Assembly (NCBI GenBank): GCA_001790095.1
Contig: MGBH01000001.1
Location: forward strand, 1,080,001 to 1,112,000
Direction: 5' to 3'
DNA: 32,000 nucleotides
Origin: Candidatus Saccharimonadota bacterium
Lineage (GTDB): Bacteria; Patescibacteriota; Microgenomatia; UBA1406; GWC2-37-13
The translations under genes and the position numbers were made by a program. Every line of letters begins with the position of its first letter. The stretch's first letter is position 1. This document shows positions 7,370 through 32,000 of this stretch, one piece after another. The notes under the pieces are model-generated. The model was given only the letters and a program-made list of their open reading frames with translations. It was not told the DNA's origin and ran no database searches.

Positions 7370-7894
7370 TTATACGGTTTCCTCGTGCTTCGTATTATAT
7401 GTACGTGCAAGCATGAACAAAAGATCTGATAGGCGGTTAAGATAGCCAACAACAATAAGTAGTTTCTTATTTATTTTAGGTTGATTTTGCATATACGCAA
7501 CAATGTGTCGTTCAGCTCTTCGACACACAGTACGGGCAAGATGAAAAAAGACAGATATTTGAGTTCCTTGAGGGAGTATGAACTTCGAAAGAGGAGGAAG
7601 CGTTTTTGTTATTTCATCTATTTTTTTCTCAATAAGGGAAGTTTTTATATTATATCGGGTCAAGTCGATTCGGGCACCACTTACATATGCCATAATTCCG
7701 TGTAGCTGACCTTGAATATTACTCAGAAAGGCCACGTGTTGCTTGTTTGGGTGAAAAGAAATTACTATTCCTAAAACTGAAGAAAGCTCATCAAGCGAAC
7801 CATAAGCCTCTACTTGCGGATTGGCTTTAGACACCCGCTTGCCTCCATAAAGAGAGGTTGTGCCATCATCGCCAGTACGGGTATATATAGACAT
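7370..7894 (-). CDS. ATP:cob(I)alamin adenosyltransferase, PduO-type
   Basis: From ATG 7894: MSIYTRTGDDGTTSLYGGKRVSKANPQVEAYGSLDELSS..., the signature N-terminus of PduO/MMAB-type adenosyltransferases, plus ARTVCRRAER. The start lies 1 nt after the nrdJ stop codon. Confidence 0.85.
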   Translation of the reverse strand: MSIYTRTGDDGTTSLYGGKRVSKANPQVEAYGSLDELSSVLGIVISFHPNKQHVAFLSNIQGQLHGIMAYVSGARIDLTRYNIKTSLIEKKIDEITKTLPPLSKFILPQGTQISVFFHLARTVCRRAERHIVAYMQNQPKINKKLLIVVGYLNRLSDLLFMLARTYNTKHEETV

Positions 7895-29670: not shown

Positions 29671-29756
29671 ATAAACATATTATAACAGACCATTTTGCAA
29701 TAATCTTTCTTCAATCTTTAATGTTGAGATATATAACTGCATGTTATACTACTATT

Positions 29757-30512
29757 ATGAGATTGCTTAAAAATGTTTCACCAAACCTCCTATTTATCGG
29801 CATAGTTGTATTTATTAGCACAGCTCTTTGGTCCTATGCTTTTTTTACCAAGGAGATAAAAACATATAAAAATACGGTCTCAGTCATAGGTGTTGCGACA
29901 AAAGATGTTGTCTCAGATTATGCGGTATGGAGGATATCTGTTTCTCGAAAAAGCCTGGACCGGTCTGAAAATGTTAGAAAACTGACCGAAGATGAAAAAG
30001 TGATTCAAGCATTTCTCAAAGATAAAGGATTTACAAAAGATGAGATCTCATCATCAAAGATATCGGTGTCAACTATTTATAAACAGAATCCAAACGGTTA
30101 CGGAGTGACCGATGAGGTCTCTTCATATGAAACGAAATCAACAGTATACGTAAGAACAAATAAAGTATATAAGGTTGATGAAGGAACCAATCTTCTTCGG
30201 AGATTTTGTGAGGAAAATAATATCGAACTTGCTGATGCATCCCCGGATTACACTTATTTAAATTTTGAATCAGAGAAGATCCCCCTTTTACAAAAGGCGA
30301 TTGAGGATGCACAAAAAAGAGCACACGCTCTGGTCAATGCGACAAAAGGAGTATCGCGAACATCAATCGGGAAGATCTTAAGTGCAGAGCAAGGAGTATT
30401 TCAAGTCAATGGAGCAAATGACAACAGCGTATCAGACTACGGAAACTTTGATACCTATTCGATCCGCAAAACCATCCGTGCTACTGTCAGTGTAGAGTTT
30501 GCTGCAAATTAA
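29757..30512 (+). CDS. SIMPL-domain (DUF541-like) envelope protein
   Basis: From ATG 29757: N-terminal TM, then a two-lobed alpha/beta pattern (VSVIGVATKDVVSDYAVWRISVS ... AIEDAQKRAHALVNATKG ... IRATVSVEFA) resembling SIMPL/26-kDa periplasmic immunogenic proteins. TGtTATACT (29742-29750) lies 6 nt upstream of the ATG. Confidence 0.55.
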   Translation: MRLLKNVSPNLLFIGIVVFISTALWSYAFFTKEIKTYKNTVSVIGVATKDVVSDYAVWRISVSRKSLDRSENVRKLTEDEKVIQAFLKDKGFTKDEISSSKISVSTIYKQNPNGYGVTDEVSSYETKSTVYVRTNKVYKVDEGTNLLRRFCEENNIELADASPDYTYLNFESEKIPLLQKAIEDAQKRAHALVNATKGVSRTSIGKILSAEQGVFQVNGANDNSVSDYGNFDTYSIRKTIRATVSVEFAAN

Positions 30513-30737
30513 TTATCGGGGTTGTCCTAATTTCCCTTCATATATAATAGTTTCTTCATCTGTTCCATGAGGATAAACTGCAATTTTTTGTTGGGCATAG
30601 TTGAGCATAATCATGGCATAAGGAAAAAGAGCATCTAAATGAATACGATCTTCAGGAGTGAATGGTACGTAAATTTCATCGGTTATTCCATTTGCCCCTT
30701 GAATCTTCACACGTTGACGAGTATTTCTCTCAACCAT
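30513..30737 (-). CDS. small hypothetical protein (74 aa)
   Basis: Non-overlapping ORF filling the gap between the SIMPL gene and the NDT-RHH gene, on the same strand as the latter. I recognise no motif. Confidence 0.35.
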   Translation of the reverse strand: MVERNTRQRVKIQGANGITDEIYVPFTPEDRIHLDALFPYAMIMLNYAQQKIAVYPHGTDEETIIYEGKLGQPR

Positions 30738-30810
30738 TTTGTTGTTTAAGTAGTAAAGAAGTAATACAAATATTGTAGGGGAGTTTGATAGAAAGCGTTA
30801 TGCATCACCG

Positions 30811-31380
30811 TTATGCATGTTTTTCCATATCGCTCTGAATAAGATGTCTTAAATATACTGATTTAGGAAGCTTTTTTTTACGTGATACTTTTTCAAGATA
30901 AGATGCGATTTCTGAGGTGATATAAAAGGTGAACCTACTATCAGCTGACCCCTGTGCATAGTTTATAAAATCTTCAATAATATCTTGTAGCGTTGTCAAA
31001 GAATACTTCTCGCAGATAACTTTTTCACTTGAATGGTGTACTAATAATGATGGAGGATCTCCTTCAGAGTAAAGAATAAGCACCGTTTTATTAAACTGTA
31101 GCGCAAGAGAAATCTCATATCCTACACTGATGCTAGGAAATGAAGCCTCAACTACCATAAAATCACAGCCGCCTATCCATTTTTCTAGATTGTCATGAAA
31201 TTTCATCCTGTCCTCTCTTTTTTCAAGACGGATTTCTTCTTCTGTAGATTTGACGATGTGGTCTGATAAGACTTGATGATTCTTATCAAGAAGAATTTTA
31301 ATGATTTTTAAGTAATTATGAAGATACTGTTTTTTTCCAACAATTGATGCAGTGAAATATACCTTCATATATGCTGTCAT
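30811..31380 (-). CDS. nucleoside 2-deoxyribosyltransferase/DNPH1(Rcl)-like domain fused to a C-terminal ribbon-helix-helix (CopG-like) domain
   Basis: N-terminal 140 aa: VYFTASIVGK...DHIV...FHDNLEKWIGGCDFMVVEASFPSISVGYEISLALQFNKTVLILY. This is colinear with mammalian DNPH1 as I recall it (YFCGSIRGG...EHV...HEQDLEWLQQADVVVAEVTQPSLGVGYELGRAVAFNKRILCLF). C-terminal 40 aa: RFTFYITSEIASYLEKVSRKKKLPKSVYLRHLIQSDMEK has a beta-strand/helix/helix RHH pattern. Confidence 0.65.
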   Translation of the reverse strand: MTAYMKVYFTASIVGKKQYLHNYLKIIKILLDKNHQVLSDHIVKSTEEEIRLEKREDRMKFHDNLEKWIGGCDFMVVEASFPSISVGYEISLALQFNKTVLILYSEGDPPSLLVHHSSEKVICEKYSLTTLQDIIEDFINYAQGSADSRFTFYITSEIASYLEKVSRKKKLPKSVYLRHLIQSDMEKHA

Positions 31381-31431
31381 TATACTCTTTCTTAACTATA
31401 TGTAAAATTATGTTGATCTATTGATTTCACA

Positions 31432-31458
31432 AATAATCGTATTTCAGAGACGATTATT
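31432..31458. promoter_or_regulatory. perfect 9-bp inverted repeat (candidate operator) in the divergent NDT-RHH / HAD intergenic region
   Basis: AATAATCGT (31432-31440), a 9-nt spacer, then ACGATTATT (31450-31458). It abuts TGcTATAAT (31458-31466) of the plus-strand HAD promoter. Confidence 0.4.
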
Positions 31459-31495
31459 GCTATAATTATTTTTTGAATCCTTATTGAGCCAAATT

Positions 31496-32000
31496 ATGTA
31501 TATATCAAAATATAAAGCAATAATATTTGATTTTGACGAGACGCTCGTTGCGTCTTATAAGGTAAAATGGGCGCAGCATCAAGAGACTGCAAAAAGGTTT
31601 TATGGGGTACATTTGACGGAAGAAAAGATCCGGAAATATTGGGGTATGCCATTTGAGCCGATGATAAGTATTTTTTATGAACATAAAGACGCGGCAGAGA
31701 ATATGATGAAAAATTACCACTCACTTGATAAGCTTTATCACAAAAAACCTTATAAGGATGCGATCTCTGTCCTTGATTTTTTACACACAAAGTCATACTG
31801 GTTGGGTTTGGTTACTTCGATGACGAAGGAATCAGTTATTCAAGACATGCAAGAGTCGGAGATGCCATATAAAAACTTTGATTATATACAAGGGTCAAAA
31901 GACTCAGATCATCATAAACCAGACCCTCGGGTATTTGATTATCTGATCAGGAAACTAGAAAGAATCAATATCAAACGGGATGAGACGTTGTATGTGGGTG
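31496..32000 (+). CDS. HAD-superfamily phosphatase (subfamily IA-like), C-terminus beyond right edge
   Basis: Not in the ORF track because it has no stop in the window. My translation from ATG 31496: MYISKYKAIIFDFDETLVAS... (motif I DxDxT), LGLVTS (motif II), HHKPDP (motif III Lys), ending ...ETLYVG, where motif IV GD is expected. Confidence 0.75.
   Translation, partial: MYISKYKAIIFDFDETLVASYKVKWAQHQETAKRFYGVHLTEEKIRKYWGMPFEPMISIFYEHKDAAENMMKNYHSLDKLYHKKPYKDAISVLDFLHTKSYWLGLVTSMTKESVIQDMQESEMPYKNFDYIQGSKDSDHHKPDPRVFDYLIRKLERINIKRDETLYVG

Follow-up and report, generated by a model that had tools for sequence, protein, structure and literature searches.

How is a protein to be understood that joins a domain resembling the nucleotide hydrolase DNPH1/Rcl to a ribbon-helix-helix (RHH) DNA-binding domain? 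The question is raised by a gene in a 32,000-nucleotide stretch of the Candidatus Saccharimonadota bacterium assembly GCA_001790095.1 (contig MGBH01000001.1, positions 1,080,001 to 1,112,000), which is referred to here as the window and numbered from its first letter. The gene belongs to a widespread family that combines the two domains, and in the window, as in many related loci, it is followed directly by a 19-bp palindrome and a promoter-like region. On balance, the protein is probably a one-component, nucleotide-sensing RHH transcription regulator of the Patescibacteria in which the N-terminal domain serves as the ligand sensor. The features on which this reading depends are the following:

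30811..31368, minus strand: fusion coding sequence, 185 aa, with the probable start at 31368 and the stop codon at 30811-30813.
30949..31368, minus strand: N-terminal DNPH1/Rcl-like domain with the nucleoside 2-deoxyribosyltransferase (NDT) fold, residues 1 to ~140.
30814..30936, minus strand: C-terminal RHH domain, residues 145-185, consisting of the strand RFTFYIT, helix A, a P-K-S turn and helix B (SVYLRHLIQ).
30800..30818, no strand assigned: near-palindrome ATGCATCACCGTTATGCAT, matching the consensus at 17/18 positions and overlapping the stop codon of the fusion gene; candidate RHH operator.

The relationship of the N-terminal domain to DNPH1/Rcl is visible both in sequence and in predicted structure. 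Rat and human DNPH1/Rcl were matched over residues 7-105 in a phmmer search of the PDB sequences (E=2e-8), and a profile of 32 family sequences matched DNPH1/Rcl in the PDB at E=3e-13 over residues 3-105. In the AlphaFold2 (AF2) monomer model, for which the predicted local distance difference test (pLDDT) value is 84.5, strands and helices follow one another as in a Rossmann-like fold, and the top 50 Foldseek matches to it in the PDB are all DNPH1/Rcl (E~1e-8, template modelling (TM) score ~0.8 on the target). Pfam family PF05014 scores 23.8 bits on the window protein, below its gathering cut-off of 28.8, and matches 31 of the 32 family members at E<=0.01 (best E 2.3e-8). For the C-terminal region, the Pfam family RHH_3 matches residues 149-178 of the window protein (E=5e-4, 20.4 bits against a cut-off of 21.6) and 23 of the 32 family members (best E 1.9e-6). 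The AF2 model places helices at residues 152-165 and 169-184, after a conserved RFTF[FY]IT segment that is itself disordered in the monomer, as expected of a strand that pairs only in the RHH dimer. Across 35 columns, hhalign brings the region into register with CopG (P=2e-4, against a CopG sequence entered by hand), and a sequence-profile search of the PDB found no solved structure for the C-terminal region alone. Both domain assignments had been proposed in a preliminary description of the locus made from its letters; the first is borne out by the phmmer, profile and AF2/Foldseek results, and the second by the RHH_3 matches in 23/32 members, the modelled helices and the CopG register.

The joining of the two domains is not peculiar to the window. 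At E<=1e-3, 639 proteins match, and the best 120 of the 639 are all full length, show identities of 60-82% and derive from Gottesman-, Roizman-, Davies- and other Patescibacteria. The fusion is encoded in 119 GTDB species-representative genomes, for which it should be read that the named records are Patescibacteria/Microgenomates and that many GTDB titles state "uncultured Gammaproteobacteria". An exhaustive profile search of 1.84 billion cluster representatives (50% identity) gave 1,994 matches at E<=1e-3, of which 820 reach E<=1e-10; both domains are spanned by most of the top 150, and 132 of the 153 representatives that were retrieved are 170-215 aa long. All residue-conservation counts given below were taken over these 132 full-length representatives. 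An artefactual fusion of two genes, a risk raised beforehand, is contradicted by the full length of the best 120 of 639 homologues and of 132/153 representatives. Database names for the family vary among "hypothetical", "nucleoside 2-deoxyribosyltransferase", "2'-deoxynucleoside 5'-phosphate N-hydrolase" and "RHH domain-containing protein", and a full-text literature search found no description of a DNPH1-like + RHH architecture, in agreement with the preliminary description, which knew of no family combining the two. The DNPH1-like/RHH fusion is therefore a genuine, conserved, widespread and undescribed family.

In the flanks, an exact 10-mer, ATGCATCACC, adjoins the fusion gene in 15 loci. 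The complete element is a 19-bp palindrome with the consensus ATGCATCAC-N-GTGATGCAT, of which 81 related loci contain 37 sites matching at 15/18 positions or more, compared with 0.4 expected from shuffles; nearly all of them lie 0-80 nt 3' of the stop codon. In 36 loci the best site (>=14/18) falls between -30 and +160 nt of the stop, usually within 0-50 nt. Positions C4, A5, T15, G16 and A18 are invariant, and the promoter-proximal half, GTGATGCAT, is the better conserved of the two. In the window the site at 30800-30818 is the only one above background in the 32 kb and the 9 kb beyond (41 kb). Among 241 million metagenome records the exact palindrome occurs 29 times: five matches are on contigs that also encode a relative of the fusion protein, all at <= ~85 nt from its gene, and no relative is encoded on the remaining 24 contigs, of which the 13 that were inspected look unrelated or eukaryote-like and occur at about the frequency expected by chance. 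A general genome motif was accordingly rejected as an explanation, given the uniqueness of the site in 41 kb and the unrelated or chance-level character of the 13 inspected metagenome contigs lacking a relative.

A structured RNA was also considered and rejected. Covariation between the palindrome halves is 0.088, against 0.074 in shuffles, with 50 of 500 shuffles reaching an equal or higher value, and 11-15 of 38 palindrome sequences are unpaired at three positions with no compensatory changes; no terminator was predicted at the palindrome, and no Rfam match was found there. Since its halves vary independently, the palindrome behaves as a DNA site and not as a hairpin.

What follows the palindrome has the form of a promoter, and in the window two further features come into play:

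30772..30800, minus strand: promoter-like region 3' of the palindrome, with the -10 hexamer TACAAT at 30777..30772 and a spacer of 17 bp.
30513..30737, minus strand: 74-aa open reading frame (ORF) from the ORF list, downstream of the palindrome and promoter.

Of 36 loci, 33 have a -10-like hexamer (TAnnnT, >=4/6 matches) that begins exactly 22 or 23 nt beyond the palindrome, the control being 0.45 per offset. The palindrome consequently spans about -53 to -35, and it shares its last base with the start of the hexamer in the -35 position (TTGnnn or TCGACA elsewhere, and in the window the weak TAACGC at 30800..30795). The ATG that follows the TACAAT box in the window is that of the 74-aa ORF, which is presumed to be the regulated gene in this genome. 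Elsewhere the gene after the palindrome and promoter differs: in 32 of 81 loci it encodes a conserved, unannotated small protein of ~55-77 aa, which carries the motif LW..FWEAWEPLPLDQKLAWI and a single membrane helix at its C-terminus, belongs to no Pfam family and is absent from the window, and other loci have an APC permease, a Na+/H+ exchanger or unknowns. Homologues of the 74-aa ORF likewise stand after a palindrome in the closest relatives of the window (L113, 51% identity; L115, 42%; L numbers designate the loci compared), and a search of 5.8 billion proteins gave this soluble orphan family four members only, with no counterpart in the other 81 loci; the AF2 model of the ORF is unreliable (pLDDT 60). 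Where the gene of the small protein has been displaced from the fusion gene (L067, L075), the palindrome remains with the promoter of the small protein. Downstream genes differ, yet the palindrome recurs behind the fusion gene and its paralogues, and it stays with the promoter of the small protein when the gene of that protein is displaced; the arrangement of these loci indicates that fusion gene, palindrome-promoter and changeable downstream gene are one unit.

Several observations accompany this unit. The small protein lies 30-150 nt after the palindrome, at loci including L011, L016, L018-L022, L032, L033, L041, L046, L069, L074, L078-L080, L083 and others. In L005, L009, L012, L018-L021, L025, L026, L033, L039, L045 and L074 the short leader that separates the -10 box from the next start codon contains GC-rich hairpins, many of them with a T run behind them; they could be terminators of the fusion gene, attenuators or 5' stabilising stem-loops. 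Two or three paralogues of the fusion gene occur within 4 kb in some Gottesmanbacteria (L009 6001-9764; L010 6001-8747), and the middle paralogue of L009 (6887-7420) is followed by its own palindrome (7461-7479) and then by a 544-aa protein. In the window, a SIMPL/DUF541 gene (Pfam E=5.6e-19) at 29721-30512 on the plus strand is convergent with the 74-aa ORF and ends right at its stop, so that a transcript driven from the palindrome-linked promoter can cover the 74-aa ORF only.

Whether the N-terminal domain senses a nucleotide or hydrolyses it can be approached through its residues. In human DNPH1 the catalytic triad consists of Tyr24, Asp80 and Glu104, with Glu55 serving to activate water, His56 to stabilise the leaving group, and Ser98, together with Ser128' from the partner subunit, to hold the phosphate (PMC10603095); Arg30 is part of the proton relay (PMC12751057). 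In the subfamily of the window protein, Tyr4 (=Tyr24), Asp36-His37 (=Glu55-His56), Ser79 (=Ser98) and Glu85 (=Glu104) are invariant or near-invariant. Ser79 sits in F-P-S, a position that is Ser or Thr in 120/132 representatives, and Ser107 in P-P-S-L, outside the confidently aligned region, is a plausible equivalent of Ser128'. As Tyr4, Asp36-His37, Ser79, Glu85 and probably Ser107 are kept in this subfamily, a pocket for a nucleoside 5'-monophosphate is probably retained.

The catalytic acid has fared differently. In an ungapped alignment with the rat protein, whose register is set by W64 (=W83/W72) and D69 (=D88), Asp80 corresponds to the invariant Leu61, and a gapped alignment with the human protein puts it at Asn60, the equivalence being based in each case on sequence register and not on superposition. 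Position 61 is acidic in none of the 132 representatives, the residue there being hydrophobic, and Arg30 aligns to Val10. Tyr4 is present in 81, His37 in 70 and Glu85 in 96 of the 132, so that Tyr4 and Glu85 are each lost in 27-39%, and the combination of Tyr4, His37, Ser79 and Glu85 is found in only 36. The RHH residues R145, L158 and R174, in comparison, are present in 122-130 of the 132, and conservation within the protein is highest in the predicted DNA-contacting strand R-F-T-F and the residues of helix B; in one of the three paralogues of Gottesmanbacteria GW2011_GWA2_43_14 (the middle copy of L009) the nucleophile motif GYE has become GIQ with the RHH domain intact. Since position 61 is never acidic, the Tyr and Glu are often lost and the RHH residues are near-invariant, ligand sensing or DNA binding is more likely to be the family-wide function than DNPH1-type hydrolysis. 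The domain would then act as a module for ligand binding or oligomerisation, although some residual or altered catalysis is possible in the window subfamily. The preliminary description had pointed to YF..SI.G and VVEA...SxGVGYE motifs and suggested that the domain may be catalytically or ligand-binding competent; the motifs are indeed in the sequence and a ligand pocket is probably retained, whereas the case for catalysis is weakened by the lack of conservation of Asp80 (Leu61) and Arg30 (Val10).

These results are consistent with the following mechanism. The DNPH1-like domain would dimerise as in DNPH1 and, retaining Tyr4, Ile9, Asp36/His37, Ser79, Glu85 and probably Ser107, would bind a (deoxy)nucleoside-monophosphate-like ligand rather than hydrolyse it efficiently, with binding shifting the affinity for DNA. 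The C-terminal RHH domains would pair and bind the candidate operator at 30800-30818, either as RHH dimers or as a dimer of dimers formed through the DNPH1-like dimer, and occupancy of the palindrome would control the downstream promoter. The gene so regulated would differ per genome, being the small membrane protein in 32/81 loci, the 74-aa ORF in the window and in some cases a transporter. The downstream gene, and not the fusion gene, would be the target, as the promoter of the fusion gene carries no such palindrome, which speaks against classical autoregulation. Most RHH proteins act as repressors, and the default expectation would be that the bound protein represses by obstructing the -35/UP region, with activation as an alternative in view of the weak -35 hexamer. 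We infer the binding of the protein to the palindrome, the nucleotide nature of the ligand and the sign of regulation from sequence. Of the two readings offered beforehand, the nucleotide-sensing transcription factor is now the better supported, through the register of palindrome and promoter and the stronger conservation of RHH than of catalytic residues, and the regulator/enzyme of nucleotide salvage the less so.

Before the alternatives are weighed, the start of the gene and its surroundings require comment, for which two more features are needed:

30811..31380, minus strand: fusion ORF as given in the ORF list, 189 aa.
31406..31379, minus strand: sigma-70-type promoter of the fusion gene, TTTACA-16-TATAAT (promoter scan, 11/12 matches).

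The ORF was described previously from 31380, and it is present as such; its start, however, is better placed at the second ATG. The homologues are ~185 aa long with the N-terminus M-x-[VA]-Y-F-T-A-S (all 120 matches listed), and the first in-frame ATG is overlapped by the TATAAT box, whose end lies 10 nt 5' of the ATG at 31368. For these two reasons the true start is probably 31368 (MKVYF...), giving 185 aa, and a start at 31380 would be four codons too long. With its -10 box 10 nt before the ATG, the mRNA of the fusion gene would be almost leaderless. In many related loci (L004-L083) inspection by eye, without a count, showed a -10 box resembling TATAAT, frequently preceded by TG, ~6-11 nt 5' of the start.

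On the other side of this promoter lies a divergent haloacid dehalogenase (HAD) phosphatase gene with its ATG at 31496, and this gene and the 74-aa ORF after the fusion gene are both present where they had been described. The spacer between the divergent genes, 31381-31495, had been put forward as the DNA target; it is probably the wrong DNA, as conservation is seen instead in the site at the gene's 3' end (30800-30818). The spacer was considered as the operator and set aside: no ATGCAT-type site is found there or elsewhere in the window besides 30800-30818, and no shared upstream motif was seen by eye. The spacer does contain a perfect 9-bp inverted repeat, AATAATCGT-N9-ACGATTATT, at 31432-31458, unrelated in sequence to the ATGCAT palindrome. 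It ends 2 nt before a TATAAT box at 31461-31466, itself 29 nt upstream of the HAD phosphatase ATG, and looks like an operator overlapping the HAD phosphatase promoter. The wider surroundings are ordinary chromosome, with genes for SmpB, a two-component system, peptidases and MscL. The preliminary description had proposed a search for conserved neighbours in other genomes; ORF clustering (83 loci clustered, 72 of them focal) revealed no conserved, functionally informative neighbour, and in the focal loci gave lineage synteny only, in the form of Peptidase_M50-like, YtxH-like and ArsR genes.

Two further occurrences of the palindrome type deserve mention. In L035, L039, L045, L055 and L071 a shortened site, TACATCACAGATGCAT, lies just after the stop, with a hexamer spacer of 5 nt as opposed to 7; this lineage has Leu before the RHH strand (DLRFTFF) in place of Thr/Ser, and its TTG... 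-35 and TATAAT hexamers are still present. Co-variation of the pre-strand residue (T/S or L) with the spacing (7 or 5 nt) was considered, and as the trend is confounded by lineage no claim is made of it. An exact palindrome, ATGCATCACTGTGATGCAT, occurs ~60-90 nt upstream of a small CopG-like RHH ORF near an integrase-like ORF (L094 12678-12977, the contig of L111 760-1059), on a contig that is unrelated to the fusion loci and has a GC content of 0.51-0.53; it may be due to chance, or the palindrome type may be one used by other RHH proteins.

A number of points weigh against a nucleotide-sensing regulator acting at the palindrome. The window protein is under the Pfam gathering score for both domains, and the C-terminal profile matches no PDB structure. 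About 40% of related loci are without a recognisable palindrome, and no alternative palindrome shared by the loci lacking the canonical site was found. Half-site centres 13 bp apart are not what is usual where RHH dimers bind side by side, the position of the site, with its centre near -44, is as compatible with activation as with repression, and the link between protein and palindrome is circumstantial, resting as it does on adjacency. This last point opens the way to a different explanation, in which the palindrome is an element of the downstream promoter recognised by a different factor, while the RHH-like tail serves oligomerisation only or binds DNA elsewhere. The loci without a palindrome would suit this explanation, and gene order is partly syntenic within lineages, such that the adjacency may be inherited. 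It is nevertheless distinctly improbable, for the palindrome is found after the fusion gene and after its paralogues despite a change of downstream gene among the small membrane protein, the 74-aa ORF, a permease, an exchanger and unknowns; the exact copies on contigs that encode a relative all adjoin its gene, the inspected others lying in unrelated-looking contigs; the site is unique in 41 kb; and the R-F-T-F strand and helix B, the parts that would contact DNA, are the best conserved.

The invariance of Tyr4, His37, Ser79 and Glu85 in the window subfamily is a further difficulty for a pure sensor, as it would also fit an enzyme that uses another acid, for example Glu62. On such an account the protein would resemble PutA as a bifunctional enzyme and regulator: an active nucleotide N-glycosidase, converting deoxynucleoside monophosphates (dNMPs) or modified dNMPs to base and deoxyribose 5-phosphate in salvage or pool sanitation, with substrate availability coupling the two activities. 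Not only are Glu85, Tyr4, Asp36-His37 and Ser79, as DNPH1 catalytic and phosphate residues, invariant or near-invariant in the subfamily, but Glu62, beside the position equivalent to Asp80, is acidic in 30/32 close homologues. Bacteria of the candidate phyla radiation (CPR), moreover, are reported to be unable to synthesise nucleotides, from which a dependence on salvage can be surmised. This account is considered unlikely, given that the equivalent of Asp80 is Leu and never acidic in the 132 representatives, that Arg30 is replaced by Val, and that Glu85 and Tyr4 are each missing from 27-39% of representatives that keep the RHH domain. A salvage operon was rejected, as no deoxyribose-phosphate or nucleotide-salvage gene is found among the conserved neighbours in the 72 focal loci. 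A toxin-antitoxin or anti-phage module, in which the RHH domain would be antitoxin-like, the NDT fold a nucleotide-degrading effector and the small downstream protein a partner or toxin, has in its favour that RHH domains are typical of antitoxins, a faint RelB-like NCBIfam match (13.6 bits), a downstream gene that is small, variable and often encodes a single-pass membrane protein, and the paralogue arrays. The RelB score is, however, far under the cut-off of 50 bits, the RHH domain is C-terminal and the palindrome lies away from the gene's own promoter; homologues in Gottesman-, Roizman-, Davies- and Woesebacteria are 52-82% identical, the gene sits amid housekeeping genes, and the PADLOC defence-system models gave no match to the proteins. 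Such a module is very improbable.

The nucleotide-sensing RHH regulator thus stands as the preferred reading, and a bolder form of it may be put forward tentatively, as a possibility that is more doubtful than the regulator itself. The family could be a lineage-specific master switch of ultra-small bacteria, in which a disabled DNPH1 domain reads the (deoxy)nucleoside monophosphate pool and the RHH domain controls a portable cassette of operator and promoter, carried where the gene of the protein ends, that drives interchangeable membrane or transport genes; the ligand would possibly be a modified nucleotide, such as a 5-hydroxymethyl-pyrimidine nucleotide, or a host-derived product of DNA breakdown. 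If true, the family would provide the first transcription factor with an NDT fold and one of the earliest defined regulator-operator pairs of the Patescibacteria. Patescibacteria account for a large part of bacterial diversity and, to our knowledge, have very few recognisable transcription factors and almost no defined regulator-operator pair, a setting in which the family offers a candidate operator and promoter defined at the level of sequence. The NDT/DNPH1 fold would join the enzyme folds that have been recruited as sensors of DNA-binding proteins, and nucleotide status would be tied to the expression of membrane proteins in organisms unable to synthesise nucleotides. For annotation, the labels nucleoside 2-deoxyribosyltransferase and dNMP N-hydrolase are best avoided for the fusion proteins.

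Comparison with known systems places the window protein between several of them. With DNPH1/Rcl it shares a Rossmann-like fold (Foldseek TM ~0.8), colinearity over ~100 residues and equivalents of Tyr24, Glu55-His56, Ser98, Glu104 and probably Ser128' (Tyr4, Asp36-His37, Ser79, Glu85 and Ser107). It differs in its incomplete triad, with Leu61 for Asp80, in the Val for Arg30, in the many members without the Tyr or the nucleophile Glu, in the appended 45-residue RHH domain and in a PF05014 score under gathering. NikR resembles it in outline, having an RHH domain covalently joined to a small-molecule-binding, oligomerising domain and a palindrome of two half-sites at a promoter. In NikR, however, the RHH domain is N-terminal and the tetramerisation domain is ACT-like and binds metal, whereas the RHH domain of the window protein is C-terminal, on an NDT/DNPH1 fold for which a nucleotide is expected; the half-sites are 13 bp apart from centre to centre here and separated by 16 bp in NikR, and no sequence similarity is found (hhalign against the NikR N-terminus, P=0.089). 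NikR is thus an analogue only.

PutA likewise fuses an RHH domain to a domain of enzyme fold in a single transcription-regulating polypeptide, but it is large, fully active and regulates its own put operon, whereas the window protein is without a key catalytic residue and has its site downstream of its gene. CopG, Arc, MetJ and the RHH antitoxins share the strand-helix-turn-helix arrangement, including the CopG register of an R-x-T-x strand and a G/P-x-S turn; their RHH domains are stand-alone or N-terminal and usually autoregulating, in contrast to the C-terminal position here on a 140-residue domain predicted to bind a nucleotide, and the absence of a palindrome at the gene's own promoter further separates the protein from type II RHH antitoxins. 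Analogous logic is seen in MetJ, as an RHH protein with a ligand, and in PurR and PyrR, which are enzyme-fold sensors. Read in this way, the protein, which comes from a poorly understood phylum, would join the RHH regulators that carry a sensor domain, an established type, and what would be new in it is a sensor fold not previously linked to transcription factors.

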